A DNA stretch of 64,000 bases. Origin: Verrucomicrobiota bacterium. GTDB taxonomy: Bacteria > Verrucomicrobiota > Verrucomicrobiia > Palsa-1439. Shown here piece after piece: positions 18,914 through 45,494 of this stretch (position 1 is its first letter; each line of letters opens with the position of its first letter). The notes beneath the pieces are model-generated. The model did not search any database. It saw only the letters and a program-made list of their open reading frames with translations, and was not told the DNA's origin. The translations under genes were made by a program, and so were the position numbers. Location: assembly GCA_003152315.1 (NCBI GenBank), contig PLZV01000023.1:4905-68904 (forward strand), in the 5' to 3' direction.

Positions 18914-20350
18914 TCATTCCTTGGTCAATCGGACGATGGCCGCCGCCGCCGCCGACACGTTCATTGAAAAATGCCCATTGTTCAAAGGGGCGGCCAAAGA
19001 TGTCCAGGCGCCAGACCAACTGCCGTTATCTTTAATTGGAGCATCGCCTAATGTTACGCCTGCAGGGGCGGTGATATCACTGTGTGGTGCGGTCAGGAAC
19101 ATGACCTGTCCACGAGTATAGGAACTACCGAGCGCGATGGTGACATTCGCATCACGCGCGCCGGCGGTTTCTTTATTGATGAGCGTGACGTACAGGTTGC
19201 CATTGCTGGATAAAACGCCATACGCCGTCAAATTGACTTGGTCGGGATTGGACGCGAAATGCACTGGCACCAATTGACCGTGACAGCCCAGATCAAATGC
19301 CTTGATTGCATAAGCCAGCGGTCGCGCGGCGAAACCTTCCGGGGAATTCCAAAAAACGACATATTTCTGTGGTTCCGGAGGCCGCACACCGTCCGCGTAG
19401 CCGCCTGTATGAAAATTAATCCCCGCTGCACCCCGATTGGCCCACCAATACATGTAATCCAAACCCCACAAAGCGGAGGCGAATGCGTCACTGGCGCCGG
19501 ACGCGCCGCCGTTGGAGAAGCTGTTTGCTTCCTCCAACCGATATTGAAACCCGGAAGACAAAGCGGTAGGAACAAAGTCATTGTATAGTTTTTCATATAA
19601 GTTCAGAAGATCTGCAGAGAGCAACTTTTTGCAGGCCGCCACGGCGTTGGTTGCGACGCGGCCGCTTCCCGCAGGATATTCGTGTTGGGTGACCATAATG
19701 ACGTGTTTGTTGTGCGCAAATTCCTTGGCAAAATCGTTCGCCCACTGGACGTTCTTGTGCATCGTACTCGGACCACAAAACACCGCTTCCGGGGCATTGG
19801 TGGCGGCGGTAATCACCGCCAGATAATTTCTCATCGCTTCGCCATAGGCTTGCGAGTCTTTCACGAGCTTGTCGGGTTCGTTCCCGAGCTCAAAGCAGGC
19901 AAGTTCTGGCCGATAGTTGTCCATTATGTATTTGGCCGTTTGGGCAGCATCAGCCGGCTCGGTTCCGCTCAGCCGGAGGGTGTAAATCACTTTGACGCCC
20001 GCCGCCCGCGCGAAAGCAAACAGACTGTCAATGTCAGCCTTATTCGGAATCTTCACGGTGGCTCGTTCCGCCGTATTGCCGCCAACCCGCAGGCTTTGAA
20101 TCCCCAGTGTCTGGAACGTTTTGATCAATGGCTTGTTCGCTGGGTTAAAAAAGTGCCCTCCATTTGTGGCCGGACCGACTAAGGCCATCTCATAACTCAG
20201 CCCGATGAAGTTGGATGAGATCGTTGCGCCGGGAGACTTTGGATCAAGAGTAATGTCCACAGACGACGCGGCGAGAATTACATCCTGATACAGGCAGAAA
20301 GCGATCAATGAAGGGAGGATTCTTTTCACAAAAACGGCCGGTATATTCAT
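18914..20350 (-). CDS. Secreted GH79-like beta-glucuronidase
   Basis: Signal peptide; FIGLSYE, LRVGGNTAE, FELGNEPD (acid/base), RLEEANSFSNGG (nucleophile), SDAFASALWGLDY, GINFH. Confidence 0.85.
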   Translation of the reverse strand: MNIPAVFVKRILPSLIAFCLYQDVILAASSVDITLDPKSPGATISSNFIGLSYEMALVGPATNGGHFFNPANKPLIKTFQTLGIQSLRVGGNTAERATVKIPNKADIDSLFAFARAAGVKVIYTLRLSGTEPADAAQTAKYIMDNYRPELACFELGNEPDKLVKDSQAYGEAMRNYLAVITAATNAPEAVFCGPSTMHKNVQWANDFAKEFAHNKHVIMVTQHEYPAGSGRVATNAVAACKKLLSADLLNLYEKLYNDFVPTALSSGFQYRLEEANSFSNGGASGASDAFASALWGLDYMYWWANRGAAGINFHTGGYADGVRPPEPQKYVVFWNSPEGFAARPLAYAIKAFDLGCHGQLVPVHFASNPDQVNLTAYGVLSSNGNLYVTLINKETAGARDANVTIALGSSYTRGQVMFLTAPHSDITAPAGVTLGDAPIKDNGSWSGAWTSLAAPLNNGHFSMNVSAAAAAIVRLTKE

Positions 20351-20439
20351 GCTGCGACTCTATGCAGTCAGCAATAGTCGGGCAAGAGGAAACGCAGAAC
20401 ACAGTGTGGGACAATCCCCGGACTGCAAGGCTGCGGAGC

Positions 20440-21480
20440 TTAGCCGGCGGCCTTCGCGGAAGTTTCTCTGACTGTTAAACTCGACGCAAGAAGCACATCC
20501 ATGAGGCTTTCATCCTCTGAGTCAATGCGCCTCAGCAGCAGTTCTGCGGCCGTCACTCCAATCTTCTCGGGGTCGGCATGCGCACCCGTGATTTTGGGAT
20601 GTTCCTCCTCGCAAACGCGGGTGGCATCCACGGCGACCACGCTAATCTCCTCCGGCACGCGCCATCCGTTTTGCATTAGGCAATTGATCACCCCGCGAGC
20701 CATCAAACCGTTGGCACAAATCCACGCGGTGGGAAAACTCTTTCGTGAGATTTGGCCGAGCATGATCTCGCCCGCTTCCCATCCGCTGAGGCGATCGCCC
20801 AGTTCCACATTCACCGTGAAGTTGTCGGCCAGTTTCAAATTGTGCTGATTCAGCGCCTCAACGAATCCGTCGTGTCGACGGATATTGTAATGCAGCCCCT
20901 TGTCGCCGGCGATCCAGGCAAAACGACGGTGCCCCAACCCCGTCAGATGGTCCACCAGGAGACTCAACGCCTGCTCTTCGTTCGCCATCACCGAATGGCA
21001 GATTCCGGGATAACTCACGGAAATGGTCACCAGATTCGGTTGCGCCGCTTTGATGGCTTTGAGGAATTTCACGTCCACCTGTCCAAGCACAGCGAGGCCG
21101 AAGACTTGGTTGTGGCGAAGCTTTTGTTGTACGGTGCGGACGCCAAGATCGTCTTCGGATCCGAGAAAAACCGAGTGGTAACCACGTGTCAGCAAGCCCT
21201 CGTGCAACCCGTGCTGCACGTGGCTGAAAAAATTACTTTGGGTGTGCAACCGCAGCCCGCTGCGTAAGATGAAGCCCACGTTCGTGATCAGGGTGCCGCT
21301 GCCATTGAGCTGCATACCCTTGGGCCGGTAGCCGATTTTGAGGGCGTGATCCCAAATCCGCCGGTAGGACTTCGCGCTAATGTTCTGCCGCATTCCATTC
21401 AGAACCATGGAAACTAACGCCTGCGAAACGCCCAGGTCATGGGCGATGCTTTGCTGGGAAACACGCTCTTTCTTCTTCAC
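20440..21480 (-). CDS. LacI-family transcriptional regulator with atypical hinge
   Basis: N-terminal HTH IAHDLGVSQALVSMVLNG; sugar-binding domain (HLTGLGHRRFAWI, PTAWICAN, VPEEISVV, LTVRETS). Confidence 0.9.
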   Translation of the reverse strand: MKKKERVSQQSIAHDLGVSQALVSMVLNGMRQNISAKSYRRIWDHALKIGYRPKGMQLNGSGTLITNVGFILRSGLRLHTQSNFFSHVQHGLHEGLLTRGYHSVFLGSEDDLGVRTVQQKLRHNQVFGLAVLGQVDVKFLKAIKAAQPNLVTISVSYPGICHSVMANEEQALSLLVDHLTGLGHRRFAWIAGDKGLHYNIRRHDGFVEALNQHNLKLADNFTVNVELGDRLSGWEAGEIMLGQISRKSFPTAWICANGLMARGVINCLMQNGWRVPEEISVVAVDATRVCEEEHPKITGAHADPEKIGVTAAELLLRRIDSEDESLMDVLLASSLTVRETSAKAAG

Positions 21481-21571
21481 AGTCAGAAAGTTAACTCAAT
21501 GACACTGTGTTTGAAAGCAGAAAGCGGCACACCGTGTTTCGAACTTTTCACTTGCAAACGAGGCGAATACA

Positions 21572-21583
21572 TTATAATTATTA
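21572..21583. promoter_or_regulatory. Putative operator (TTATAATTATTA) overlapping TATAAT between the divergent lacI and dehydrogenase operon
   Basis: One of five copies of the TAATAATTATTA-like palindrome at island promoters. Confidence 0.7.
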
Positions 21584-21587
21584 AGCA

Positions 21588-25491: not shown

Positions 25492-25532
25492 TTGCATTAC
25501 CGGTCGGTCGCTGTTAAATTTAATAATTATGA
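25492..25532 (+). promoter_or_regulatory. Sigma70 promoter plus operator
   Basis: TTGCAT (25492-25497), 17 bp, extended TG-N-TAAATT (25515-25520), immediately followed by TAATAATTATGA (25521-25532). Confidence 0.7.
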
Positions 25533-25638
25533 ATCGACGGGAAGGCTCTCTCGGTCCCGGCGGGAACTGTAACGCGTTGCTTGGCAGATGGGAACCAGGA
25601 GCACGCTAGTGCTCCACAAACGGCAAGGGATGCATCAA

Positions 25639-28590
25639 ATGACTCAGTCGCAACCTCTCACCCGGATATTTCGTTGTTCAACTCCAGCCCTGATTGCCGC
25701 CGTTATGGCGTTTGGATTGCTGGCCACTGCCCCGCGCGGCCTGGCGGTCACCATGACTTGGACAAATGGCAACGACGTCTGGAACAGCACGACGGCTTGG
25801 ACAACGAACCAGTCCAGTGGTCAAGACCCAACGGATCCTGGGTTATCCAACGTTACTTGTATAGCGGGCGCCGTTACCAACGTCACCGCCACCTGCGTCG
25901 GCGGAACGGGCGGCTTCCCCTCAACTGCTGACACGGCGCGCTTCACAAACGACACGAGTTATACTGTCAACGTCAGCGCCCCGACAACCGTCGGCTTCAT
26001 TACATTCTCGAACACAGCGGGGGCGGTCACGCTGAATGCCGGTTCGTCTTCGCTGTCCATCACGGGCCGGTTCCGGATTGCCGATGGCGGCGCCACGTCG
26101 ACGGTTGTTTGGGCGGGCGGGACTCTCAGCGCTGCGAACAGCAGCCTGACGACACAAATTGGTAGTGCTAACAGCAATTCTGTGGGTGTTTTGATCGTAA
26201 CCAATGGGACTGTGATCACTACGGGGAATGTGTCGCTGGGCACACCCCTTACATCGGTCGGGAAGCTCATCATCAGCGGTCCCGGCGTCGTCACGAATGC
26301 CATCGGGCAACAACTGGCGTCGCCTTACGTCTTCAGGGCGCGCACCCCCGGCAGCGAGATAATCATCACCAACGGCGGCAAGCTGTTTTGGGCCGGCGAA
26401 GTCAGGGTTGAGTCGAACAGTCTGATGCTCGTTTCGGACACAAATAGCCTTTTGTATTGCACGAACAACCCGGTCGTCAGCAGCGCCCTCGCTTGCGGTG
26501 ATCTAGAGGGCCCCGGCTGCAAGATGATCATCAGCAACGGTGCGACAGTCTTTGCCGATGGCACCATCTCCATTGGCAGAAATAGCGGTTCCTCCAATAC
26601 CGGGATTGTCGTCGGCGCCGGGTCCAAATTGATCTCGTCGGCGATTGGGAATTTCGTCATTGGTGTTGGCAGTGCGACTGCCAGAGACAATTCCCTGACC
26701 GTTTATGACGGCGGTTATGTCGAATGCGGCGGCCCCTTCTTCTCCGTCCCTGGCGGTACCGTTACCAATGCCTCATTTTATATGGGGGGGGCGGGAGCCA
26801 TTAGCACCGGTTTGGCGGTCGCAGTTCGCGGAAATTCACAGGGACTGAACAGCTTGATCGTCGTGACAAACGCGGTGTTCACCTGCACTAAGATGTCAGT
26901 CCAGGGCAGCGGAAGCAACGCTCTGGCTGTCTTGTCCAAGGGAACGCTCAACGTCACCGCCTTCAGCACCTTCGAGACAAACGGTCTGAGTGTCGCCGCC
27001 GTGTCCGGTGCTCTCACGATCAACGCGGGCACCATCAATGCCGTCAGCGGCACCAACGCCCTCGGTGTCACTATCGGCGGCAACGGCACGCTTACGGGCA
27101 ACTCATTGACCATTACCAACGGGGGTAAGCTGCTATCGGAGTTGGGCACCATCGGCCCAAACAGCTCTCTTAATACCGGAGTTGTCACCGGGGTTGGATC
27201 GATTTGGTCGAACTACACAGCCGGAGCCAGCTTTGTCAACTCGAATAGCCTTATTGTCGGCGGTGGCACCACGGCGAGCGGCAGCCGCAACTACTTGGCT
27301 GTTCAGAATGGCGCGACCCTTGTCAACAACGGCTCGCTGCAAATTGGTAACAGCGGCAGCTCCACGCTCAACTCGGTCCTCTTCGGCGGTCCCGGGGCGC
27401 CCGCGGTGATCATTAACAGTGGAATGGTAAATGTTGGTGGTGGCTCCGGGACATCTGGAAACTCACTGACAATTTCGAATGCCAGTTTGAATTGCGACAC
27501 GCTCAACGTCGGCGGCGCTGGCACCAACAGAGTCAACAACACGCTTGTTTTTAACGGCGGTACGATCTCAGCCAACTATGTTCGGGTTCGGCTGTCGAAT
27601 ACAGTTGTCTTCACCGCCGGCACACTCAGCGCCGGGGGTTTGGACATCGATCCCGGCGCCAACAACAGCAATGTCTTCGTCGTCGGCGATGGCACCAGCG
27701 CCGCCTACTACGACATGGCAGCGGGCGGCACCGGCTATCACGGCTTTAGTAATGGCGGTCTCGTTGTCACGAACGGCGCCTCCCTCCGTGGCAGCGGCAC
27801 GCTGACCGGTACCATGACCGTGCTCGGCACGTTCGTGCCCGGGTTCGCCAATGCGGTCGGCTCGATTTTTACCAGCAACAGCCTTACCTTTGGAAGTTCG
27901 GCTGTGCTAAACTACGACTTGGGCACTGTGAGCGACACGGCGACAATCAACGGCAATCTGGCCTTGGGCAACAGCATAGTGAACGTGACGGATTCGGGTG
28001 GGTTTGGCGCGGGGACGTATGTGTTGCTCACCCACACGAACACGGTGACGGCTCCGTCGGGAACATTGACGGTGGGCACGTTGCCCGCGGGATTCACCGC
28101 CACGGTTTCCAATGATGTGCCCACTGCCCGGGTCCTGCTGGTAGTGAGCGCCATCGGCGGTGGCGATCCGTACGCCACGTGGCTGACTCACTACGGTCTC
28201 ACTGGCGGGAATGCATTGGGCACGGCCGATCCGGATGCCGATGGCATGAGCAATACCAATGAGTTCCTGGCTGGTTTCAATCCGACCAGCAACGCAGCCT
28301 ACCTACATGTCATTAGCGTTGTGAAATCTGGCAACAACATGAACATCACGTACCTGGGCGCCAATGGGGACAGCACCTACTCGGGTGGGCCTGCCTCACG
28401 CACCAACGTGCTGGAGTTCACGACTGGCACGGTCAACGGTAGTTACTCGACAAACAACTTCGCGAGCACCGGCCAAACCAACATTCTCAGCGGTGGCACA
28501 GGTGCGGGCGTGGTGACCAATATGGTGGACAGTGGTGGGGCGACGAACGCCCCGTCGCGGTACTATCGGGTACGCGTGCTAGTACCGTAA
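25639..28590 (+). CDS. Large secreted Gly/Asn/Thr-rich beta-helix (autotransporter-passenger-like repeat) protein with C-terminal [FY]YR domain
   Basis: Signal peptide; repeated L.I.NGG.L / IG......N.L.V units; C-terminus DPDADGMSNTNEFLAGFNP...RYYRVRVLVP. Start uncertain (25588/25630/25639). Confidence 0.8.
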   Translation: MTQSQPLTRIFRCSTPALIAAVMAFGLLATAPRGLAVTMTWTNGNDVWNSTTAWTTNQSSGQDPTDPGLSNVTCIAGAVTNVTATCVGGTGGFPSTADTARFTNDTSYTVNVSAPTTVGFITFSNTAGAVTLNAGSSSLSITGRFRIADGGATSTVVWAGGTLSAANSSLTTQIGSANSNSVGVLIVTNGTVITTGNVSLGTPLTSVGKLIISGPGVVTNAIGQQLASPYVFRARTPGSEIIITNGGKLFWAGEVRVESNSLMLVSDTNSLLYCTNNPVVSSALACGDLEGPGCKMIISNGATVFADGTISIGRNSGSSNTGIVVGAGSKLISSAIGNFVIGVGSATARDNSLTVYDGGYVECGGPFFSVPGGTVTNASFYMGGAGAISTGLAVAVRGNSQGLNSLIVVTNAVFTCTKMSVQGSGSNALAVLSKGTLNVTAFSTFETNGLSVAAVSGALTINAGTINAVSGTNALGVTIGGNGTLTGNSLTITNGGKLLSELGTIGPNSSLNTGVVTGVGSIWSNYTAGASFVNSNSLIVGGGTTASGSRNYLAVQNGATLVNNGSLQIGNSGSSTLNSVLFGGPGAPAVIINSGMVNVGGGSGTSGNSLTISNASLNCDTLNVGGAGTNRVNNTLVFNGGTISANYVRVRLSNTVVFTAGTLSAGGLDIDPGANNSNVFVVGDGTSAAYYDMAAGGTGYHGFSNGGLVVTNGASLRGSGTLTGTMTVLGTFVPGFANAVGSIFTSNSLTFGSSAVLNYDLGTVSDTATINGNLALGNSIVNVTDSGGFGAGTYVLLTHTNTVTAPSGTLTVGTLPAGFTATVSNDVPTARVLLVVSAIGGGDPYATWLTHYGLTGGNALGTADPDADGMSNTNEFLAGFNPTSNAAYLHVISVVKSGNNMNITYLGANGDSTYSGGPASRTNVLEFTTGTVNGSYSTNNFASTGQTNILSGGTGAGVVTNMVDSGGATNAPSRYYRVRVLVP

Positions 28591-28634
28591 CATGCCCATT
28601 GACTGGTAGCCACGTCGCTATCGGTAAGCCAATT

Positions 28635-30380
28635 ATGCATCGCAATCGGGTCAGTACATTCACCCTGGTTCACTCGGTGTTGCTCTGCCTCGCCGGCGCA
28701 ACGGCTTGGGCACTCGACCCTGGCCAGCCGCCGGGAAGCAACTTTGATTTGAGTCATTGGAAAGAGCAACTCCCCACCTTAAACGGCGTCCTCACCTGTT
28801 CGGGGACCGGAGGCGTGGATGAGGTGAAACCACCCCAACTGCAGGCAGGCTTTACCAACGCGTATTTCTACACCGGATCGGACGGAGCGATGGTGTTCTG
28901 GGCGCCGATTAACGGCGCGACGACGAGCGGTAATACAACGTCTCCGCGCTCCGAATTGCGTGAGGAGATGTCTCCTGGTTCCGACAGCCTGAACTGGATA
29001 CTGTTCGGCACGCATATTCTGGATGCGCAGTGCAAAGTATTACAGGTGCCGACCAGCACCAAAGAAACCATTATCGGCCAAATCCACGCTCAAAGCGGTG
29101 CCGCCCTGCCAACAGTCAAGGTCGTCTACAATAACGGCAAGGTTCATTCGACCATCAAGACCAACTCAACCGACGACAACAGCGACTTGGACTCCCCAAC
29201 TGTGACCGTCGGGTTGAGCAACAGCATCACGTACGAAATCAAAGTCGTGAACGGCCTGGTTTCGGTTGTGATCAACGGTAAGACCAACTCGCTAAATGTT
29301 TTCCAGACCGACCCGAATTACACGAATGAAACGCAGTATTTCAAAGCCGGGGACTATTGCCAGGCCAATGCCTGCACAAACCCTTCAAACGACGGCGCCA
29401 AGGTTGCGTTTTACGCCGTGACATTGTTCCACGCTCCCAGCATCACCAACCAGCCCGCCAGCCAAGCGGTTTCCGTGGGGAGCAACGTTACGTTCAATGT
29501 CGGCGCGCTTGGCAATCCACCATTGTACTATGCCTGGCGGCTGAACGGCACGAACATCAATAACGCGACCAATGCCACCCTCGCGATCCCCAACGTGCAA
29601 CTCACCAACGCGGGCACTTACTCTGTGGTCGTTACCGACTCTGTCGGCACCGTCATCAGTGCCGTCACCAGCAGCAACGCCACATTGACCGTGGTTACAC
29701 CTGCGCCTGTGGCCAGTTTCACCGCGAGTCCGACCAATGGTGCAGCGCCGCTGGCCGTGGCCTTTACGGATACCTCGTCGAACTCGCCCACGAACTGGTC
29801 TTGGACGTTTGGCGATACCGGCACGTCAACGTCGCAGAGCCCAAGCCACACGTACACCACGGCTGGCAGTTACACGGTGAGGTTGATCGCCAGCAACACG
29901 GGAGGTTCGGGTACCAATACCCAGACGGCCTTGATCAGCGTTTACGACCCGTTTGCGTGGTGGCAGCTCCAGTACTTCGGCAGCACCAACAATAATCCGA
30001 ACGCGGCACCGGGCGGGGACTACACCGGTACCGGTATGAGCAACACCAATAAATTCCTGGTAGGCTTGAATCCCATCAGCCCTGCGGCGTACCTGCACAT
30101 CATCAGCATCGCCAATACGAACACGGCAGACATCAACGTGATTTATCTGGGGGCCAATGGCGACAGCACCTGGTCGCCGGGCATCGCGTCGCGCACCAAT
30201 GTGCTGGAGTTCACGGCGGGCGCGGCTAGTGGCGACTACTCGAATAACTTCGTGAGTGCCAACGTGACCAACATTCTCAGTGGCGGGACCGGAACCGGCT
30301 TCGTCACCAACATGGTCGATGCTGGCGGCGCGATCAATACGCCGTCGCGGTACTACCGGGTCCGCGTGCTGGTGCCTTGA
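28635..30380 (+). CDS. Secreted PL7 alginate lyase with Ig, PKD and C-terminal [FY]YR domains
   Basis: FDLSHWK, SPRSELRE, IGQIH, YFKAGDYCQ (PL7 signature trio); Ig (PSITNQP), PKD (WSWTFGD...HTY). Confidence 0.92.
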   Translation: MHRNRVSTFTLVHSVLLCLAGATAWALDPGQPPGSNFDLSHWKEQLPTLNGVLTCSGTGGVDEVKPPQLQAGFTNAYFYTGSDGAMVFWAPINGATTSGNTTSPRSELREEMSPGSDSLNWILFGTHILDAQCKVLQVPTSTKETIIGQIHAQSGAALPTVKVVYNNGKVHSTIKTNSTDDNSDLDSPTVTVGLSNSITYEIKVVNGLVSVVINGKTNSLNVFQTDPNYTNETQYFKAGDYCQANACTNPSNDGAKVAFYAVTLFHAPSITNQPASQAVSVGSNVTFNVGALGNPPLYYAWRLNGTNINNATNATLAIPNVQLTNAGTYSVVVTDSVGTVISAVTSSNATLTVVTPAPVASFTASPTNGAAPLAVAFTDTSSNSPTNWSWTFGDTGTSTSQSPSHTYTTAGSYTVRLIASNTGGSGTNTQTALISVYDPFAWWQLQYFGSTNNNPNAAPGGDYTGTGMSNTNKFLVGLNPISPAAYLHIISIANTNTADINVIYLGANGDSTWSPGIASRTNVLEFTAGAASGDYSNNFVSANVTNILSGGTGTGFVTNMVDAGGAINTPSRYYRVRVLVP

Positions 30381-30661: not shown

Positions 30662-31435
30662 CTAACGTCCTTCCCAGAGAGACTGGCCAGCCGATGGCGG
30701 CGGGAAAGCCGCTTTCGCCTGGGTGAAAGTCACGTTGCGCACGCTGCCGTCAACATACAGGATGTTCATGGAGTCGGCGAGGTGGCGAAAGTCCAGCCAA
30801 CTGCAGGCGGCGGGACCCCCTGAAGCCAGATCGTCCTTTGTGGCAGTTCCGCTCGAAGACTTCCACGGAGTGTTGGATTGGCAACTCGCGCTGCCGGGGG
30901 CGCCGGGATCCTGTTTACCCTCGATGACGAGCGGTGTCTCCGAGGGATTGGTCGTGTCAGCGGCCTCCAACCGCGGTTGCTGGGAGGTCAAGGTAGTAGT
31001 GGTTCCCGGTTTGATCCCCAGCATGGCCCCGGTACACGAGTAGGTTAAACTGAGATCCGAGTTGTTCGCGATTCCTGGAAACTTGGCGCTGGGGCAGTCA
31101 AAAACCCGATTGGGCGATGCGGTGCTGCCAGCGCCCTTCTGCGGCATGTACCGACCCAATAGTTTTGGCCAAGTCGGGACGCCGGTTCCACCGGATGGCG
31201 TCGGCATATATCCGTCGTCCTCGTCCGTGTAAAGATGGATGGCTATAGAGATCTGGCGCAAGTTGGACACACAGACTGCCATTCGTCCCTTCTCACGAGC
31301 CTTATTGAGAGCAGGCAGGAGCATTGCCGCCAGGATCCCGATGATGGCGATGACCACCAGCAATTCGATGAGCGTGAAGGCCCGCGTGTGTCGGCCGGCG
31401 GAACGGCGCTGTGGCTGGGTGTAACTTTGCTTCAT
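30662..31435 (-). CDS. Prepilin-type N-terminal cleavage/methylation protein with H-X9-DG C-terminal motif (DUF1559-like)
   Basis: [29 protein letters not shown]....[27 protein letters not shown]. Confidence 0.92.
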
Positions 31436-31547
31436 GGTTCTGTCTTTCCTTGAATCTGTCACGGTGTCATCCTTCACCGCATCGAAGCCGTTGCATGCTA
31501 CTATCCACGTATTTTACGGATTTTCGCCTTGCGGTCAACACTATTTT

Positions 31548-31559
31548 TGATAATTATTA
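31548..31559. promoter_or_regulatory. Putative operator (TGATAATTATTA) in the divergent pilin/cupin intergenic region
   Basis: Palindrome copy; a minus-strand TTGACC-16-TAAAAT promoter for the pilin gene lies at 31511-31538. Confidence 0.7.
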
Positions 31560-32672: not shown

Positions 32673-32677
32673 AATTC

Positions 32678-34459: not shown

Positions 34460-34464
34460 CTATT

Positions 34465-35226
34465 ATGGGAAACCTCAACGGAAAACGCGCACTCGTCACG
34501 GGTGGCGGCCAGGGACTTGGATACAGCATCGTGGAACAGTTGCTCACCGCCGGCGCGGACGTGGCCGTCCACTATTTCTCCAGCGAGACCGGCGCTCGCG
34601 AACTGGAGGCGCTGGCGCAAAAACGTGGTCGCCGGGCCGAAGTGTTTCGCGCCGATTTGACGAAAGAAACCGAAGCCGCCGCGCTGGTGGTTAGCGCCAC
34701 GAAGTTTCTCGGCGGCCTCGACGTGTTGGTGAACAATGCGGGCGATCTCGTCGAGCGGCGCACAATCCAGGAAGTGGACGCCGCGTTTTGGGAACGGGTC
34801 ATCAATGTGAACGTCACCTCGATGCTGTGGGTCACGCGCGCCGCCGTGCCGTGGCTGGAAAAGGCCGGGCAAGCCAGCATTGTAAATCTTTCCTCGCTGG
34901 CCGGTCGCAAAGGCGGTCATCCTGGCTCCCTTGTTTACTCCACGGCCAAGGGCGCGGTGCTCACGTGGACGCGGGCGCTTGCCACCGAGCTCGCTCCCCG
35001 GGGAATTCGCGTGAACTGCGTCGCGCCGGGTTTCATTCTCGGCACGAGGTTTCACGAGACGCATACTTCCGAGGACAGCGCGAAGCAGACCATTAAGGGT
35101 ATCCCGCTAGGCCGCGCGGGCTCACCGGAGGACATCGCGCGTGCCGTGGTTTATCTGGCCTCGGAATTTGACGGGTTCATTACCGGTGCGACCCTCGACA
35201 TCAACGGTGGCGTTTATGCGGCGTAA
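34465..35226 (+). CDS. SDR oxidoreductase, probable DEH (4-deoxy-L-erythro-5-hexoseulose uronate) reductase
   Basis: TGGGQGLG, NNAG, SLAGRKGGHPGSLVYSTAKG, APGFILGTRFH, FITGATLDINGG resemble alginate-pathway DEH reductases; gene context agrees. Confidence 0.8.
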   Translation: MGNLNGKRALVTGGGQGLGYSIVEQLLTAGADVAVHYFSSETGARELEALAQKRGRRAEVFRADLTKETEAAALVVSATKFLGGLDVLVNNAGDLVERRTIQEVDAAFWERVINVNVTSMLWVTRAAVPWLEKAGQASIVNLSSLAGRKGGHPGSLVYSTAKGAVLTWTRALATELAPRGIRVNCVAPGFILGTRFHETHTSEDSAKQTIKGIPLGRAGSPEDIARAVVYLASEFDGFITGATLDINGGVYAA

Positions 35227-35233
35227 TCGACCC

Positions 35234-38200
35234 ATGCGCATTAGATCCCTGGTTGTCTTTTTCCTTGCCGCCGCGGTTTTACCCGTCGCACTGGCAGCGG
35301 AACCGATTTCAAAAACTCCTTCCGAAGATGCCATCATCAAAAACTTTCACTCGTTGGGGCTGATCAACGGCCAGACAAACATCTTCCGGTGCGCGTGCCC
35401 GGTGATGGATGTGGCCGAAGAGATGAAGGGCGCGAAGCCTACGGAGAAGGATTTGGAATTGGCCCGCGAGCGGATGCAGCATCTCCGGGATCTCGGCGTC
35501 CGTACGGTAATTTCGTTCGAACATCAAGACCCGCCGAAAGAAAACGAGACGGACGTGGAACACAGGGCCGTCGCCTTGGAGCAGATTGCCGCCAAAGAGG
35601 TGGGGCTGGCCTATGTCGCCTATCCGATGTCGAACAAGGGCAAGGATTCCTTTGAAGACATGTCGGACGATGCGGTGATGAAGCTGCTCGATCCCATCAG
35701 CGAAGACATTTTCAAATTCACCAGAACCGGCGGCGTGGTGTTTCACTGCAAATCAGGCAAAGACCGTACTGGAATCATGGCGGGCTATCTGCGGCTAAAG
35801 TACCAGCATTGGACGGCTGATGAAGCCATCGCCGAGATGCGACGTTACGGCCATGTTTGGAACAAACTGGCGGACGACGGCGCCGCGAACTCGTGGCATG
35901 AAAATCATCTGCGCACCATAGCAAAAATCCTGAACCCGCTTGGGCAATCATACCAAAGGCTGGATAACGGCTGGGAATTTTATCAGGGCGCACTCGGTAG
36001 CCCCTGGGAAATCTGGCGCGGCGACAAGGCCGCCGACAATATCACATGGCAGCCCGTCACGCTGCCGCATTGTTTCAATGCCCGCGACTCGGTTGATCCC
36101 GATGTGCACTATTACCAGGGGCCCGGCTGGTATCGCACGCGGCTCAAGGTGGAGAACCTATTTCCAAACGGACGGACCTTGCTGCACTTCGACGGCGCGG
36201 GACAAAAATCCCGGGTCTTTGTTGGAATGGAAAAGGTCGGCGAACATGTCGGCGGCTACGACGAATGGACCGTGGACATTACGGACGCGGACGCTCGCGC
36301 CGCTACGAATTCATTTTCCGGCGTCAGCACGCCCGTGGCGGTGCTTTGCGATAATTCCCGCGATGCGGAGATGATTCCTTCTGATCAAAGCGATTTTAAT
36401 CGCTATGGCGGCCTTTACCGGCACGTTTATCTCGAATATGTCCCGGCGATTTCGCTGGAGCGGGTCCACGTCGAGCCAAAACTCGTAGCGGATGACAAAG
36501 CTTCCATCAAAGTCCGGGCACGACTTCACAATCCAACGGCAGCCAACGACGAAGTCAAACTCGCGATCGAAGTCCGCGACCCGCAGGGCAACCGTCTCCA
36601 GATTACGACGAACAAACTGTCCCCGTGGTCGGGGGAGAAGGAAATCGCCGCATTGGAAATCGCCAAACCGCAACTGTGGTCGCCAAATTCACCGGCTCTT
36701 TACAGTTGTGCCGTCACGCTACAATCGCCGCAAGGCGAACAGCAAATAACCGAAAAGTTCGGCGTACGTTCCTTTGAATGGGTCGAGCATGGACCCTTCA
36801 AGTTGAATGGCGAACGTTTGCTATTGCGCGGCACGCAATATCACCAGGATCACGCCGGTGTAGCTGCGGCAGTGCCGGATGACGTCGTCCGCAAGACGTT
36901 CCAACAGATTAAAGACATGGGCGCGAATTTCGTCCGACTCGGCCATTACCAGCAATCACCGCTCGTGCTGGAGATGTGTGATCAACTCGGGTTGCTCGTG
37001 TGGGAGGAAATCCCATGGTGCCGCGGTGGTCTTGGCGGCGAGCGCTACCAACAACAAGGCCGCGACATGCTGCGGAACATGATTGACCAGCATTACAATC
37101 ATCCGGCGGTGATTCTCTGGGGCCTGGGCAATGAGAACGATTGGCCCGGTGATTTCGAAACCTTTAACACCAATGCCATTCGCGCTTACATGACGGAGTT
37201 GAACACGCTCGCGCATCAGATCGACCCGTCGCGCAAGACATGCATCCGCCGTTGCGATTTCTGCAAGGACATCCCGGACGTGTATTCTCCGAGCATCTGG
37301 GCCGGGTGGTATTCCGGACGTTACACCGAGTATCGCGGGTCAGTGGAAAAATGGATCGGCAACGTGCCGAGATTCTTCCATGCCGAGTGGGGCGGGGACA
37401 GTCACGCCCGCCGTCATTCGGAAGACCCCGAGAAATTCCTGCAAGAAGTTGCCACCGGCCAGGGCACAGCGGAAACCGCCAAAGCGTACAAGTCGACGGG
37501 CGGCAAGGCACGCGCGTCTCTGGACGGCGATTGGTCGGAGAGTTACATCGTCAATCTCTTCGACTGGCATCTCAAGGAGCAGGAGCAGATGACGAACCTG
37601 ACCGGCAGTGCGCAATGGATTTTCAAGGACTTTGCCACACCGTTGCGCCCGGAGAATCCCATTCCACGCGTGAATCAAAAGGGCCTGGTCGAACGCGACG
37701 GCACGCCGAAGGAAGGCTACTACGTTTTCCAGAGTTATTGGGCCGACAAGGCGATGGTCCATGTTTACGGGCACACCTGGCCGGTCCGTTGGGGCAAACC
37801 CGGCGAGGAGAAGCTCGTGAAAGTGTATTCGAACTGCCGTGAGGTGGAGCTGTTCGTTAATGGCATCTCGGTTGGTGTGAAGCAGCGCAACAGCACCAAC
37901 TTCCCTGCCGCCGGTCTACGCTGGGCCGTGAAACTGAATGACGGCCCGAACACGCTGCGCGCCGTGGGCCATCGTGACGGGGTGGAAGTGAGCGATGACA
38001 TTTCCGTCAGCTATCAGACTGCGGCTTGGGACAAGCCGGCCAGGCTCGCGCTCAGGGAAATCTCGCGGAGCAACGACGTCGTCACCGTCCAGGCGCTCGT
38101 ATTCGACAAGGACGGCGTGTCTTGCCTTGACGCGACGAACGTCGTCCGCTTCGGTTTGGCTGGTGACGGTCTTTTGCTCGATAATCTCGGCACATCCATT

Positions 38201-39445
38201 GGTTCGCGCGTGGTGCAACTTTACAACGGTCGCGCGCAGATCAGCCTCCGGCTTGCCAGCGGCGAAGCCGTGGTCAGCGTGGCGAGCGTTGGTTTGGAAA
38301 CGCAATTCCTGAGCGTAACCAATGCACCAACTGCCTCTGTGAAACTGACGCTCGACGTGGGCGCGATTGACCGCGAGCGGATCTTGAAGGCCGCCAGCGC
38401 CGCGCTCGGGAGCGAACCGCTGACCATTACCAAGTTCCGCGCAAAGTTGAGCGGGGGTGGGCTGAATGATTTTTATTCCAACGGTGATTACTGGTGGCCC
38501 GACCCAACCAAGCCCGACGGGTTGCCGTACATCCAGCGCGACGGCGAATCGAATCCCAGCAACTTCTCAGAGCACCGGCTTGCCATCCGCAATCTGCGCG
38601 ATGCGGTGGCCGCGCTCGCCGCTGCCTACAAGGCCACTGGCGACGATCGTTACGTGACCAAGGCGGTCGAGTTGCTACGGGTGTTCTTTCTGGATCCACA
38701 GACGCGGATGAATCCGCACTTGAAATACGCGCAAGCGATTCCGGGTAAGTCCCCCGGTCGCGGTACCGGCATCATTGACGGCCTGCACCTGATCGAATTG
38801 CCGCTCGCGATTCAGGCGATGCAGAAGTCACCTGCCTTTCCGCCCGAAGTGTTGGCCGGACTGAAACAGTGGTTTGGCGACCTGGCGGAATGGATGGTAA
38901 CGAGCAAGAACGGACTGGAGGAGGCTGCGTCCAAAAACAACCACGCCGTTGCGTTCTACCTGCAACTCGCGGTCTACGCCGGTCTCTCGGGGGACGAAGC
39001 GAAACTTGCGGAGTGCCGTCGGCAATTCAAAGAAGTGTTCGTCCCGAACCAAATGGCGGCGGACGGAAGTTTCCCGGCTGAACTCAAGCGGACCAAGCCT
39101 TACGGTTACTCCATCTTTCAACTCGATAACATGGCCACACTTTGTCAGGTGCTTTCAAACGACCGCGACGACTTGTGGCGGTTTGAGCTTGCCGATGGTC
39201 GGGGCATTCAGAAGGCGATGGCGTATCTCTATCCGTTTCTGGCGGATAAATCGAAGTGGCCGCTCAAACCCGACGTGCAGGCGTGGGCCGACTGGCCTTC
39301 GCGCCAATCGTGCCTGCTGTTTGCCGGGCTGGCGCTGAATGAACAGCCGTATCTCGACCTCTGGCGCAATCTCCCGCCTGATCCAACCAACGCCGAAATC
39401 CGTCGCAATATTGCCATCACCCAGCCAGTCCTTTGGATAAAGTGA
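35234..39445 (+). CDS. Secreted tri-modular protein: Cys-based (CX5R) phosphatase-like domain, GH2, alginate_lyase (PL38-like)
   Basis: Signal peptide; FHCKSGKDRTG P-loop; GH2 motifs YYQGPGWY, YGGLYR, NFVRLGHY, WGLGNE; lyase motifs YWWPDP...GLPYIQRDG.SNP, TRMNPHLKYAQ, NNH, EL.RT.PYGYS.F.L. Confidence 0.85.
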   Translation: MRIRSLVVFFLAAAVLPVALAAEPISKTPSEDAIIKNFHSLGLINGQTNIFRCACPVMDVAEEMKGAKPTEKDLELARERMQHLRDLGVRTVISFEHQDPPKENETDVEHRAVALEQIAAKEVGLAYVAYPMSNKGKDSFEDMSDDAVMKLLDPISEDIFKFTRTGGVVFHCKSGKDRTGIMAGYLRLKYQHWTADEAIAEMRRYGHVWNKLADDGAANSWHENHLRTIAKILNPLGQSYQRLDNGWEFYQGALGSPWEIWRGDKAADNITWQPVTLPHCFNARDSVDPDVHYYQGPGWYRTRLKVENLFPNGRTLLHFDGAGQKSRVFVGMEKVGEHVGGYDEWTVDITDADARAATNSFSGVSTPVAVLCDNSRDAEMIPSDQSDFNRYGGLYRHVYLEYVPAISLERVHVEPKLVADDKASIKVRARLHNPTAANDEVKLAIEVRDPQGNRLQITTNKLSPWSGEKEIAALEIAKPQLWSPNSPALYSCAVTLQSPQGEQQITEKFGVRSFEWVEHGPFKLNGERLLLRGTQYHQDHAGVAAAVPDDVVRKTFQQIKDMGANFVRLGHYQQSPLVLEMCDQLGLLVWEEIPWCRGGLGGERYQQQGRDMLRNMIDQHYNHPAVILWGLGNENDWPGDFETFNTNAIRAYMTELNTLAHQIDPSRKTCIRRCDFCKDIPDVYSPSIWAGWYSGRYTEYRGSVEKWIGNVPRFFHAEWGGDSHARRHSEDPEKFLQEVATGQGTAETAKAYKSTGGKARASLDGDWSESYIVNLFDWHLKEQEQMTNLTGSAQWIFKDFATPLRPENPIPRVNQKGLVERDGTPKEGYYVFQSYWADKAMVHVYGHTWPVRWGKPGEEKLVKVYSNCREVELFVNGISVGVKQRNSTNFPAAGLRWAVKLNDGPNTLRAVGHRDGVEVSDDISVSYQTAAWDKPARLALREISRSNDVVTVQALVFDKDGVSCLDATNVVRFGLAGDGLLLDNLGTSIGSRVVQLYNGRAQISLRLASGEAVVSVASVGLETQFLSVTNAPTASVKLTLDVGAIDRERILKAASAALGSEPLTITKFRAKLSGGGLNDFYSNGDYWWPDPTKPDGLPYIQRDGESNPSNFSEHRLAIRNLRDAVAALAAAYKATGDDRYVTKAVELLRVFFLDPQTRMNPHLKYAQAIPGKSPGRGTGIIDGLHLIELPLAIQAMQKSPAFPPEVLAGLKQWFGDLAEWMVTSKNGLEEAASKNNHAVAFYLQLAVYAGLSGDEAKLAECRRQFKEVFVPNQMAADGSFPAELKRTKPYGYSIFQLDNMATLCQVLSNDRDDLWRFELADGRGIQKAMAYLYPFLADKSKWPLKPDVQAWADWPSRQSCLLFAGLALNEQPYLDLWRNLPPDPTNAEIRRNIAITQPVLWIK

Positions 39446-44475: not shown

Positions 44476-44503
44476 AAGAAATACGTTCGTCTCCACATTC
44501 TCT

Positions 44504-44524
44504 TGATAAGTATTAGCATGTCAA
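44504..44524 (-). promoter_or_regulatory. Operator copy (TGATAAGTATTA, 44504-44515) in the spacer of a TTGACA promoter for the PL15 operon
   Basis: Minus-strand TTGACA at 44519-44524, followed by the palindrome variant. Confidence 0.6.
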
Positions 44525-44545
44525 TTATTTTCGGAAAAGCAAATA

Positions 44546-44571
44546 CCCTCGCCGTCGGAAGACGGCGAGGG
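44546..44571 (-). terminator. Intrinsic terminator downstream of the PEP-CTERM gene
   Basis: Perfect 11-bp stem CCCTCGCCGTC-GGAA-GACGGCGAGGG followed on the minus strand by TATTTGCTTTT. Confidence 0.75.
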
Positions 44572-44597
44572 CAAGTAAGAATATCGGGCCAAACGGA

Positions 44598-45494
44598 CTA
44601 TTTCTTCAAGGAGCGACGGCGACGCGTTACCGCACAAAGCCCGGTAAGAGCGAAACCGCAAAGAGCCAGCGTTGACGGCTCTGGAACAAGGATCAGCGCG
44701 TTGAGTTGGCTGTCAATTTGAGCGGTGGCTAAAACAGTATTCCAGGTGGCCAACTCATCGACCAGCCCGGGAACTCCAGCAACATTAAAACCGCCACTGG
44801 CATCGCTCTGTATGGCGCTAATGGTGAACGTGCCTCCATTGCCCAGAATTGCGGTGGAAGATATGTTGCCCGTCCCGCCTCTCTGAGTAAATGACGACAG
44901 AATAGTATTGCTCGCTTGCCCTGCCACCGCCAGATAATTAGTGATTCCATACGCGCTGGAATTCGCTCCGCTAAAGTCCCAAGTGGCCGCATAGTAATAC
45001 CACGTGCCGGGGGTAACCGTCCACGGAGTGGTGATCGTCTTGTTCCCCGCCTTGATGGTAACCACCTGACCGACGAGTTCCAGGGTATACTGATTCCCAT
45101 TCGCGCCTGCGACGTCGCCGTTTGAAAAGACGTACCGTGTGCTGGCGTTGACGGCGTTTGGCGTATAGAAGAGCAGGGACAACGAACCGATGGAATTGGC
45201 GGCCCCGCTGTTGTTAATGATATTCCCACCAGCAGCCACAGCGAGTTGGGCGGTGGTGTTCGTAAAGAAAGCGGCGTCACTCACGTTGCCAAAGTAATCG
45301 TTCGTGAAGCCGGTACCAACGGCGGTTGGGACGAACGTCCCGGTGCCGATCGTAGGCACATAGGAGTTGTCCAAACTGTTGTAGTACATCGGGCTTTGGC
45401 CGGTCACAGTGCTTTGGTAGGCGGCCAAGTTCTGCCCGCGAACTGCGGCGGTCGCGAAAGCCAGACTGATTGCAATAGCCAGACATGTTTTCAT
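44598..45494 (-). CDS. PEP-CTERM exosortase target with LamG/concanavalin-like domain
   Basis: Signal peptide MKTCLAIAIS...; PGTWYYYAATWD and GLVDELATWN (LamG-like); VPEPST, TM segment and RRRRSLKK tail. Confidence 0.9.
   Translation of the reverse strand: MKTCLAIAISLAFATAAVRGQNLAAYQSTVTGQSPMYYNSLDNSYVPTIGTGTFVPTAVGTGFTNDYFGNVSDAAFFTNTTAQLAVAAGGNIINNSGAANSIGSLSLLFYTPNAVNASTRYVFSNGDVAGANGNQYTLELVGQVVTIKAGNKTITTPWTVTPGTWYYYAATWDFSGANSSAYGITNYLAVAGQASNTILSSFTQRGGTGNISSTAILGNGGTFTISAIQSDASGGFNVAGVPGLVDELATWNTVLATAQIDSQLNALILVPEPSTLALCGFALTGLCAVTRRRRSLKK

Follow-up and report, generated by a model that had tools for sequence, protein, structure and literature searches.

The window analysed here, a stretch of 64,000 nucleotides from a peat-dwelling member of the Verrucomicrobiia, contains a genomic island of the tyrosine-integrase type (positions 18272-47230, ~28.96 kb) that is integrated at a tRNA-Arg(ACG) gene and constitutes the genome's sole polyuronate-lyase system. 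Its cargo is probably a LacI-type regulon for polyuronate breakdown. On balance we lean towards the view that three non-enzymatic genes within it, encoding a pilin-like, a LamG and a beta-helix protein, supply co-regulated envelope parts, which may keep the polymer and the lyase together on the cell surface.

Results

The island is bracketed by a perfect 41-bp direct repeat (18231-18271 = 47190-47230), and the following features mark its ends.

18231..18271, + strand: attL, displaced copy of the 5' half of tRNA-Arg(ACG), identical to 47190-47230
18400..18421, + strand: tandem AGATTACAA / AGATTGCAA, candidate integrase arm-type sites, left end
45983..47098, - strand: tyrosine integrase, intact, right island end (Pfam Phage_integrase, 5e-16)
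47115..47136, + strand: tandem AGATTGCAA x2, candidate arm-type sites, right end
47190..47268, + strand: attR repeat (47190-47230) inside the intact tRNA-Arg(ACG) gene (47192-47268)

Two congeners, G006 and G014, have an empty site at which the FGGY gene directly adjoins tRNA-Arg. Together with the att repeats and the integrase, these sites bear out what a sequence-only reading of this DNA had proposed, namely that the whole module is one mobile unit. The integrase, the tRNA-Arg gene and the 41-bp repeats, on which the evidence for mobility rests, were not cited in that reading. The window has three exact copies of AGATTGCAA, all of them at the island ends; with one mismatch allowed, its count is not above chance. 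No conjugation or excisionase gene was recognised. Paralogues of the integrase adjoin other tRNA-Arg genes, and related integrases (81.6%, 89.7% and 56% identity) are accompanied by different cargo. In several respects this is the familiar picture of a tRNA-targeting tyrosine-integrase island: insertion is at a tRNA gene, the integrase sits at one end and a partial-tRNA repeat at the other, relatives have the site unoccupied, and the cargo varies from one related integrase to the next. The usual repeat of such islands is the 3' end of the tRNA, however; here it is the 5' half, with the intact gene downstream of the island.

Gene families were assigned with Pfam on 38 window ORFs (23 + 15) and through the nearest solved PDB chains. 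The enzymes, the transporter and the catabolic genes are as follows.

18914..20350, - strand: GH79-type beta-glucuronidase with signal peptide (Pfam below cut-off; PDB 3vny/5g0m, 6e-46)
21588-22601, + strand: 2-hydroxyacid dehydrogenase, operon start (Pfam)
22585-23469, + strand: xylose-isomerase-like TIM protein (Pfam)
23438-25381, + strand: DUF2264 ('GH154') uronate dehydratase-like protein (beta-D-glucuronic acid dehydratase 9o4u, 9e-24)
28599..30380, + strand: PL7 lyase with Ig, PKD and C-terminal domain (CTD) (Pfam; nearest chain A1-II', 6e-43)
31566-32672, + strand: bicupin, PMI-like (Pfam)
32519-34459, + strand: SSS-family transporter (SSF; Pfam)
34276-35226, + strand: SDR, DEH-reductase-like (A1-R 3afm, 1e-41; 4w7i, 1e-40)
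35141..39445, + strand: single 1434-aa ORF with signal peptide, Tyr-phosphatase-like domain, GH2 and PF05426 lyase
39452-40393, - strand: esterase (Pfam)
40397-42328, - strand: PF05426 lyase and esterase ('alginate lyase family' 3nfv/8bdq, 1e-59)
42325-44496, - strand: PL15-like exolyase, DUF4962 and Hepar_II_III_C (PL15 Atu3025 3a0o, 3e-56)

These Pfam and PDB matches agree with the gene list given earlier from the sequence (PL7, two PF05426/PL38-like lyases, a PL15-like enzyme, GH79, DUF2264, GH2, esterases, SSS and SDR). The link of DUF2264 ('GH154') to uronate dehydratase has been described (PMC12269599), and for the SDR, FabG-type chains score equal to A1-R 3afm and 4w7i. One HSP spans the GH2-to-lyase junction of the 1434-aa ORF in 39 of 80 related loci. 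By tblastn against the whole genome, the PL7 catalytic domain, PL15, PF05426, GH79 and LamG are confined to the island contig. An RNA library holds five exact contigs on the beta-helix gene and over the beta-helix/PL7 junction, a weak hint of activity in situ.

The substrate may be of the glucuronan type rather than alginate. A dedicated alginate system, as opposed to a glucuronan or mixed-uronan one, is a possibility to which we give appreciable but lesser weight: the PL7 lies nearest to alginate lyase A1-II', with glucuronan lyase 7nde farther away (4e-20), the PL15-like protein is closest to the oligoalginate lyase Atu3025, the best SDR matches include DEH reductases, and acetyl esterases fit bacterial O-acetylated alginate. 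However, the GH79 beta-glucuronidase and the DUF2264 beta-glucuronate dehydratase would have no role on mannuronate or guluronate, Pfam finds no KdgF-size cupin in the island, and brown-algal alginate would not be expected in the peat habitat. In the earlier label 'alginate/uronan', the word 'alginate' is tentative: the PL7 and PL15 proteins are most alginate-enzyme-like, whereas GH79 and DUF2264 indicate beta-glucuronate.

The predicted regulator and its candidate operators are listed below, the latter without strand.

20440..21480, - strand: LacI-family regulator, RbsR/CcpA-like, full length (Peripla_BP_3, 1e-30)
21572..21583: operator O1, TTATAATTATTA, over the -10 of the HADH operon, LacI divergent region
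25521..25532: operator O2, TAATAATTATGA, upstream of the beta-helix gene
31548..31559: operator O3, TGATAATTATTA, overlapping the cupin-operon -10, pilin/cupin divergent region
44504..44515: weaker operator-like site, TGATAAGTATTA, 2 mismatches, upstream of the PL15-like gene
45695..45706: operator O4, TAATAATTATTA, exact, upstream of the LamG gene

With at most one mismatch, the 12-bp palindrome TAATAATTATTA occurs five times in the 4.89-Mb genome against ~1.7 expected; four of these copies are at island promoters, and the fifth lies upstream of another pilin and CTD-protein pair, at C37. O3 immediately precedes a promoter-like site of the pilin gene. The operator sites have counterparts at matching positions in the congener G015, and in G012, G013 and G014 close to several of these positions; O1 is kept in all four, and the position equivalent to the site upstream of the PL15-like gene is also occupied in G015 and G013. 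The statement that the surface-protein genes share the operator needs rewording: one palindrome recurs in four promoter regions, with a weaker fifth site, as separate copies rather than as a single operator. Binding of the LacI-type protein to these copies is what the sequence suggests.

The three non-enzymatic genes are the following.

25588..28590, + strand: secreted adhesin-like right-handed beta-helix protein, 1000 aa, with a ~126-aa CTD
30662..31477, - strand: DUF1559-type prepilin/pseudopilin-like protein, probable start 31435 (N_methyl 33 bits, PF07596 29 bits)
44598..45638, - strand: LamG/ConA-like lectin-fold protein with PEP-CTERM tail (PEP-CTERM 24 bits; Laminin_G_3 below cut-off)

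The beta-helix ORF has no Pfam or NCBIfam match. Of the '~1000-aa beta-helix' proposed from the sequence the length holds, and the fold is supported by a predicted model only (pLDDT 85.9). The best Foldseek matches of that model are the passengers of Ag43, pertactin and Hap (1e-5 to 2e-3), with which it has in common a long right-handed beta-helix; unlike these autotransporters it lacks a C-terminal beta-barrel translocator and has the CTD instead. PL1, PL3, PL6 and PL9 lyases and alginate epimerases are right-handed beta-helices as well. It could hence be asked whether the protein is an unrecognised polyuronate lyase or epimerase and not an adhesin, given that its gene is co-transcribed with PL7, that a distant homologue, P0307, bears PF14592, and that the Foldseek matches include PL6 alginate lyases (E 0.13 for 7dmk, 0.4 for 5gkd and 0.5 for 7o7t). 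We consider this unlikely, as the best matches are non-enzymatic passengers (E 1e-5 to 7e-4, probability 0.98-1.0 against 0.04-0.11 for PL6), searches of Pfam, NCBIfam and PDB sequences return no lyase family, and the atlas lead is a PATR repeat. As for the CTD, this ~126-aa beta-sandwich occurs in 93 ORFs of the genome, the PL7 and the beta-helix protein among them. The LamG protein gives a profile match of 1.4e-6 to the SAP-like pentraxin 3flp (atlas clusters 0.98), and the genome has 58 PEP-CTERM-like tails, a count obtained, like those of the 93 CTD proteins and the 25 pilins, by motif rules.

The pilin-like protein (predicted model pLDDT 91) shares with GspG/PulG and type IV pilins a class III signal peptide, an N-terminal helix, a pilin-type head fold and a conserved C-terminal His...Asp-Gly motif, which reads H-X10-DG and not H-X9-DG as previously given. 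Structural matches covering its head domain are pilins and pseudopilins, though weak (Z 5.7-3, best Z 5.7), and its N-terminus resembles GspG (TIGR01710 2.8e-9, below cut-off). It differs in a head ~2x as large, in a gene located outside a machinery operon, in its 25 paralogues scattered in catabolic loci, and in that a fibre is only putative. The genome carries these 25 DUF1559-type pilins at 21 loci, and 11 of its 14 LacI-family genes have one within 10 kb, compared to a random mean of 1.4 (0/5000 permutations reach 11). Ten of the 21 loci (11/25 pilins) are carbohydrate loci for different glycans; the other 11 have no carbohydrate family within 6 kb, a raw count with no random-locus baseline. 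Orthologues in congeners are 53-55% identical, against 35-47% for same-genome paralogues.

Discussion

Are the three surface-protein genes part of this system, or do they merely travel with it? They stay with the enzymes in G012, G013, G014 and G015 despite rearrangement, with LamG, beta-helix, PL7 and pilin contiguous in this order in G012 and G013, and are partly kept with them in another family (G299). Among the matches listed, 20 pilin homologues, 6 LamG homologues and 4 cases of both are apparently co-resident with a beta-helix homologue, as judged by the proxy of an equal 'longest contig' length. Their being incidental passengers, members of abundant and fast-evolving PVC surface families with no role on uronans, would agree with the large numbers of pilins, PEP-CTERM-like tails and CTD proteins in the genome, and with a divergence between G000 and G015 (47-53% identity) that is much faster than that of the enzymes (76-90%). 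It would also agree with the surroundings of 80 related GH2-PL38 loci, where neither DUF1559 pilins (6/80; 4.9 per Mb versus 4.5 in the own genome) nor PEP-CTERM tails (11/80, no denser than the genome average) are enriched; the lyase therefore works without such partners in most genomes. Nevertheless, each of the three genes has or adjoins its own operator copy, their association with the enzymes has survived rearrangement, and in an isolate of the Opitutales alginate induces a homologous arrangement (PMC13274419, as far as the available part of that report goes). An incidental presence is thus quite improbable, and the operator copies and co-conservation support a tie between these genes and the enzymes.

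No TonB-dependent receptor or SusD was found among the 38 window ORFs scanned, as the sequence-only reading had stated for the locus. SusD has 0 matches in the whole genome (95.8% complete), and the two matches to PF00593 are both on contigs other than the island's. Since absence of SusC/D is general in Verrucomicrobiota, according to the available part of PMC8857213, and is here a whole-genome trait, it is not a property of the island locus. The suggestion that the three proteins replace SusC/D is consequently not upheld, all the more as DUF1559 and PEP-CTERM genes are not enriched at the 80 loci. Like the SusC/SusD PULs of Bacteroidota, the island is a probably co-regulated cluster for one glycan with putative surface binding proteins, secreted endo-enzymes, exo-enzymes, a transporter and a regulator; it differs in that its genome has no SusC-like TonB-dependent transporter or SusD, and in that the regulator is LacI-type.

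A pseudopilin in an alginate-induced Verrucomicrobiota operon has already been published (PMC13274419, AEM 2026), and what follows draws on the part of that report and of its Table S3 available to us. In Verruconatronum alginivorum (Opitutales), operon pgaptmp_000046-60 includes the pseudopilin pgaptmp_000050, which accounts for 0.513% of the proteome with alginate as substrate but reads 0 with mannose or sucrose (one replicate per condition), and a 298-aa secreted neighbour at 0.168/0/0 on the same substrates (one replicate each). Both clusters are SusC/D-free and contain endo- and exo-lyases including PL15, and in both an SSS uronate transporter lies divergently next to a PulG-like pseudopilin of ~250 aa and a secreted hypothetical protein of ~300 aa. 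Pseudopilins are strongly expanded in both genomes (67 copies there, 25 here), and for the V. alginivorum block the authors inferred horizontal transfer. The lyases differ, being PL39 and PL29 there and PL7 and PF05426 here. Compared with what is available of that report, defined island borders with integrase and att sites, the shared operator, the beta-helix/CTD adhesin, GH79 and DUF2264 are particular to the present island. Induction there is proteome-based, whereas our island is known from sequence.

The published reading of the V. alginivorum pseudopilin, in the same available part, is type II secretion of lyases. Applied to the island, the pilin-like protein would be a locus-specific pseudopilin for type II export of lyase and adhesin through the outer membrane, or for their display, with LamG and beta-helix proteins as further secreted cargo, which we put forward as a tentative alternative. 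The GspG-like N-terminus, EpsG and PulG among the fold matches, and the operator-like site before the pilin and CTD-protein pair at C37 speak for it, as do the 7/25 pilins that have a CTD-bearing secreted protein no more than 500 bp away (random mean 1.9), a proximity that export or display fits as well as binding. On the other hand, the CTD is so common that it looks like a general sorting signal, for which a locus-specific recognition subunit is not obviously needed, and canonical GspG-size pseudopilins are already present elsewhere (clusters C16, C26 and C36). Furthermore, substrate specificity is the better fit to a set of 25 paralogues that vary in their heads, with one to each glycan locus. 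Competence pseudopili, counted here with the type IV pilins, pull in DNA. The three proteins may form a capture/uptake module, to which enzyme export or display is an equal rival.

In the reading towards which we lean, the LacI-family repressor would, when inducer is absent, occupy ATAATTAT-core palindromes that overlap the -10 box at each of four to five promoters, and uronate products would lift this repression. Secreted PL7 and PF05426 lyases and esterases would then cut an O-acetylated polyuronate (glucuronan-like and/or alginate), GH79, GH2 and the DUF2264 dehydratase would trim beta-glucuronate ends, and the PL15-like exolyase would release monomers for import across the inner membrane by the SSS transporter and keto-uronate reduction by the SDR. 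The LamG protein would be a PEP-CTERM-sorted lectin-fold envelope part, the beta-helix protein an autotransporter-like adhesin with the same CTD as the PL7, and the pilin-like protein a GspG/PilA-like subunit specific to this locus, which must rely on the cell's common type II secretion/type IV pilus machinery (the genome has 4 PilT-family ATPases, 5 secretins and 3 exosortases). Together they may keep polymer and lyase at the cell surface, the pilin-like head possibly serving as the substrate-specific binding subunit. As such, the island is a compact system in which to test how polysaccharides are handled by such bacteria in the absence of classical SusC/SusD.

Results

That the polyuronate genes move as one island, as the sequence-only reading had proposed, is borne out by tRNA-derived repeats, an integrase and empty sites, and the resulting 28.96-kb stretch (18272-47230), which corresponds to the extent first proposed plus the integrase, is well supported as an integrated genomic island. 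The 41 nucleotides at 18231-18271 recur at 47190-47230 with 41/41 identity, the sole other copy in the window in a k-mer search with the tRNA region, and represent the 5' half of a tRNA-Arg(ACG) gene (47192-47268, ARAGORN), reaching its anticodon loop. A tyrosine integrase gene (45983-47098, minus strand; PF00589, 5e-16) lies at this border, its start 93 nt away from the tRNA. The congener G006 has the order GH31, NMT1, YjeF, NAD-binding, FGGY, tRNA-Arg, with 85-93% protein identity to the left flank of the window, and both there and in the congener G014 FGGY directly adjoins tRNA-Arg, the island being absent, which constitutes an empty target site. This site was located via the tRNA, after the APH-like protein of the left flank, used as a probe, had matched nothing in any of 17 congeners.

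The tRNA-Arg(ACG) is present in these 17 congeners, frequently with additional 5' or 3' half-copies close by, and because such half-copies recur, we regard the region as an insertion hot spot. In the congener G010, an integrase 81.6% identical to that of the island sits at the same tRNA with a cargo that includes an IS66 transposase and further integrases; no island genes were found in the 40 kb beside it. Sites of related integrases lie on contig C38 of G010 and in our own genome (contig C12, 1-12900; contig C7, 5800-16100), where one paralogue (89.7% identical) is located beside tRNA-Arg(CCT) with a two-component system and an RND efflux pump as cargo, and another (56% identical) beside tRNA-Arg(TCT) with a type I restriction system. 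As such, the related integrases mark a small family of tRNA-Arg-targeting islands. All three exact window copies of AGATTGCAA occur in tandem pairs just within both island ends; these pairs are candidate arm-type sites. If one mismatch is tolerated, the window count of this sequence does not exceed chance. Base composition was rejected as an island marker: GC is 0.54-0.62 within the island as well as in its flanks, consistent with a donor whose composition was similar.

The left island end has small ORFs of 40-99 aa, among which an excisionase may be encoded. Between FGGY and the left att repeat, the segment 15848-18230 (lower GC, 0.55) carries patatin-like and APH-like genes that are missing from the congeners examined, and beside the repeat (18073-18207) a 45-codon fragment shows 67% identity to the FGGY N-terminus. 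We read this segment as the apparent scar of an earlier insertion into this hot spot. On the other side of the island, 49517-56068 encodes a 940-aa pro-kumamolisin/BACON/CBM protein and a 1158-aa protein between a GYF-domain gene and the ORF 56257-57834. Homologues of these two flanking genes lie ~1 kb apart in G006, and from this gap the 7-kb stretch may be another insertion. Further along (57951-62812), Pfam finds BMC shell proteins together with an RpiB-DeoC fusion and an aldehyde dehydrogenase, which make up a bacterial microcompartment locus, presumably of a type linked to fucose and rhamnose utilization by PVC bacteria.

Pfam scans of all large ORFs confirmed nearly every item of the gene list that had been read from the sequence:

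GH79-like gene
LacI-family regulator
operon of 2-hydroxyacid dehydrogenase, xylose-isomerase-like TIM protein and DUF2264
1000-aa ORF (the beta-helix protein), matching no Pfam family
PL7 gene with Ig and PKD domains
N_methyl/DUF1559 gene (the pilin), in reverse orientation to PL7
operon of bicupin, SSS transporter, SDR and a 1434-aa ORF
35141-39445, the 1434-aa ORF: signal peptide, Tyr-phosphatase-like domain, GH2 and PF05426 lyase
minus strand, genes for LamG/PEP-CTERM, DUF4962+Hepar_II_III_C, PF05426+esterase, and esterase

Among solved chains, PL7 is nearest to alginate lyase A1-II' (6e-43; glucuronan lyase 7nde, 4e-20), PF05426 to the 'alginate lyase family protein' chains 3nfv/8bdq (1e-59), which we take to be members of CAZy family PL38, the PL15-like protein to oligoalginate lyase Atu3025 (3e-56), GH79 to an Acidobacterium beta-glucuronidase (6e-46) and DUF2264 to a dehydratase of beta-D-glucuronic acid (9e-24). 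The SDR matches the DEH reductases A1-R (1e-41) and A1-R' (1e-40), with FabG-type chains scoring equally. Judged by these homologies, the island probably encodes both an endo-lyase (PL7) and an oligo-alginate exolyase (PL15-like), and a Pfam scan of the island found no KdgF-size cupin, kinase or aldolase in it. GH79 and DUF2264 argue for beta-glucuronate as the substrate sugar; PMC12269599 re-classifies GH154/DUF2264 as uronate dehydratases by which saturated beta-GlcA ends are primed. The predicted substrate is a polyuronate, either glucuronan-like or alginate. Further copies of PL7, PL15, PF05426, GH79 or LamG were not found in our own genome outside the island; with the whole lyase set at a single site, the island therefore supplies the entire capability.

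Among the 18 genomes of the genus, 5 carry a LamG orthologue (G000, which is our own, and G012, G013, G014 and G015); for the class the count is 8 of 401. In G015 the cluster is complete, with its gene order kept and the tRNA shared; of the integrase a 103-aa remnant is left, and an insertion adds 12 kb of other DNA. In G012 and G013 the cluster is rearranged at another location, and G014 has an eroded copy. In a genome of another family (G299), LamG (36%), pilin (41%) and PF05426 lyase (69%) relatives lie within 11 kb. We also fetched 80 loci around close GH2-domain relatives, 58 of which carry a linked PF05426 lyase as well; the rest of the island was held only by L045, which is not independent of contig C11 of G015, by L050 and partly by L048. 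The GH2-to-PF05426-lyase fusion is itself a conserved architecture, a single HSP crossing the junction in 39 of these 80 Verrucomicrobiota/Planctomycetota loci. The Tyr-phosphatase-like domain is fused ahead of it solely in our own genome, and in G012 and G013 it is a separate gene 3' of the SDR. Of the same 80 loci, 6 have DUF1559 pilins and 11 have PEP-CTERM tails, at densities equal to the genome average, which counts against strict dependence on pilin/PEP-CTERM partners.

The putative operator ties the island together. All four promoter regions carry, in that order, CTTGC(A/G/T), a 16-23-nt spacer and the 12-bp palindrome TAATAATTATTA, which at no more than one mismatch has 5 copies in 4.89 Mb (~1.7 expected from composition). 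Its copies in the island are:

21572, at most one mismatch
25521, at most one mismatch
31548, at most one mismatch
45695, at most one mismatch
44504, variant with two mismatches, ahead of the PL15-like gene

The site at 31548 overlaps the -10 element of the cupin promoter and closely precedes a promoter-like match for the pilin gene. The sites were found again in G015 at corresponding positions, and in G012, G013 and G014 near several of them. That the island forms one LacI-type regulon with this predicted operator is thus well supported by sequence comparison. The fifth genomic site, the only one outside the island (contig C37, 40363), precedes a DUF1559 pilin, which is directly followed by a 998-aa protein with BACON_2 and the C-terminal domain described below (C37:40363-44256; L044, 6364-10260); this pair may be a further member of the regulon. 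Palindromes with two mismatches at C49:20653, C30:63756, C5:329138 and C53:39389 adjoin other LacI-family genes with pilin neighbours. The pattern suggests that paralogous LacI-family regulators share a putative operator class with a ATAATTAT core.

The absence of SusC/D stood up: no SusC-like TonB-dependent transporter or SusD-like gene is present among the window ORFs, whereas a Bacteroidota-type PUL has an adjacent pair of the two. The whole genome yields no match to PF07980 (SusD) and two to PF00593, both on other contigs. A co-regulated TonB-dependent receptor elsewhere had been named as the case against a surface module that replaces SusC/D; no operator, even with 2 mismatches, lies near either receptor gene, which speaks against such co-regulation by this operator.

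The link between regulators and pilins extends throughout the genome, in which a motif rule finds 42 prepilin-motif ORFs, 25 of them DUF1559-type pilins. A DUF1559 pilin lies within 10 kb of 11 of the 14 LacI-family genes, against a mean of 1.4 and at most 6 when positions are randomized (0/5000 permutations reach 11). The 21 pilin loci were covered by Pfam scans that took in 193 neighbour ORFs, and by further scans. GH, PL or CBM families occur within 6 kb in 8 of them, among which are PL4+GH35, GH2+GH31+GH27, alpha-1,3-glucanase+GH65, GH18+GH20, GH88, GH1+GH5 and CBM96/beta-helix loci besides the polyuronate island; 2 further loci have LacI, ROK or ABC sugar-uptake genes only, and 11 have nothing carbohydrate-related, all of these being plain counts.

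The island pilin matches PF07963 (33.2 bits, cut-off 21.2) and PF07596 (29.1 bits, cut-off 23.3). Its description as an H-X9-DG prepilin holds for the prepilin motif and for PF07596, but its sequence reads H-X10-DG, with His218 and Asp229 invariant among 107 homologues, and the NCBIfam model named H-X9-DG did not match it at E 0.01 or better. For a model built with these homologues (pLDDT 91), Foldseek against the PDB gave nothing at E 0.001 or better, matching just the N-terminal helix, and VIA-align of the whole head placed type IV pilins and pseudopilins first, with weak scores (PilA4 Z 5.7, EpsG 4.3, PulG 4.1). A solute-binding fold, prompted by the Pfam identifier SBP_bac_10, was rejected, since the head-covering matches are pilins and pseudopilins and there is no solute-binding protein chain among the 50 VIA-align matches listed.

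For the ~1000-aa protein, the proposed beta-helix fold is supported by a predicted model (pLDDT 85.9). Autotransporter passengers are its best Foldseek matches (Ag43, 1e-5; pertactin, 7e-4), as compared with E 0.13-0.5 and probability 0.04-0.11 for PL6 lyases; PF14592 (PL6) had no Pfam match in the protein. Profile searches found no autotransporter family for it. Type V autotransporter adhesins possess a C-terminal beta-barrel translocator, whereas the island protein lacks one and ends in a ~126-aa domain of short helices and seven strands in the predicted model. Neither the protein nor this domain belongs to a Pfam or NCBIfam family, and the beta-helix and LamG sequences gave chance-level matches only against PDB chains. 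The LamG-family profile does match pentraxin (1.4e-6), its atlas neighbours are Laminin_G_3/PEP-CTERM clusters (0.98), and the tail of the protein matches PEP-CTERM PF07589 with 24.0 bits (cut-off 20.7). The C-terminal domain consists of a TSP3-like DxDxDG stretch and a beta-sandwich, usually ending in ...YYRVRV(L)VP, and occurs four times in the window:

28126-28590, beta-helix protein
29931-30380, PL7
about 9600-10000, end of GH31
about 250-650, minus strand, 1117-aa beta-helix ORF

It ends 93 ORFs of our own genome (secreted proteins). At E 0.001 or better, 1028 representative clusters match it, and in most of the 150 listed it stands at the extreme C-terminus. For 7 of the 25 pilins, a gene that bears it is no more than 500 bp away (random mean 1.9; 0/2000 permutations). 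It appears to be a domain for sorting or anchoring in Verrucomicrobiota that has not been described.

In public reads, 14 runs labelled peat metagenome hold at least half of the stretch's words, three of them possibly being its source. Five exact contigs from one RNA library fall within the beta-helix gene (26339-28306) and over the boundary between it and PL7 (28554-28795), a weak hint at transcription given possible DNA carry-over. Coverage by RNA run X20 is confined to the conserved N-terminus of the pilin and to parts of the beta-helix gene, the uncovered genes being uninformative.

Discussion

The three surface proteins belong to the polyuronate system of the island, and their role may be capture or import of the polymer, or export and display of the enzymes. 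SusCD genes were not detected in the Verrucomicrobiota MAGs of PMC8857213, which lists outer-membrane transport as an open question. PMC13274419 describes an Opitutales isolate with an alginate-induced operon in which PL39, PL15 and PL29 are joined by an SSS uronate transporter and by a PulG-like pseudopilin that has 67 homologues across the isolate's genome; the authors suggest type II secretion of the alginases. Table S3 of that source, with one replicate per condition, gives the shares of the proteome on alginate, mannose and sucrose as 0.513%/0/0 for the pseudopilin, 0.168/0/0 for its 298-aa secreted neighbour and 0.073/0/0 for the transporter. Our literature searches found nothing that joins Verrucomicrobia polysaccharide utilization with prepilins, and nothing relevant joining pseudopilins, polysaccharide and Planctomycetes. 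The genome itself encodes 4 PilT-family ATPases over the cut-off, 5 secretins, and exosortases at three places (one on contig C29, two on C3).

For the import side, we consider it possible, though rather unlikely, that DUF1559 pseudopilins are glycan-specific subunits of a retractile fibre that seizes the polymer and reels it via a secretin into the periplasm. One pilin paralogue would be switched on with each catabolic locus; the fibre, together with PEP-CTERM lectins and adhesins anchored by the C-terminal domain, would seize the polymer at the surface, and the polymer would then be reeled through the secretin to the periplasm, as competence pili take up DNA. If true, such a fibre would be the PVC counterpart of SusC/D, and a complete one-substrate device would travel as a 29-kb integrase island, movable into a congener without it.

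How polysaccharides are bound and imported without SusC/D in Verrucomicrobiota and Planctomycetota is an open question that the island does not answer. What it does offer is an apparently transferable 29-kb unit of enzymes, regulator, operator, inner-membrane transporter, pilin-like protein, lectin-fold protein and adhesin, in a genus with natural genomes both with and without it. Since the unit is delimited and its presence and absence are natural, gain-of-function transfer, operator-reporter assays and single-gene deletions are easy to design. The main value of the island is therefore that of a compact, transferable test system, while the link between LacI-family regulators and DUF1559 gives a large protein family of unknown function a concrete context.
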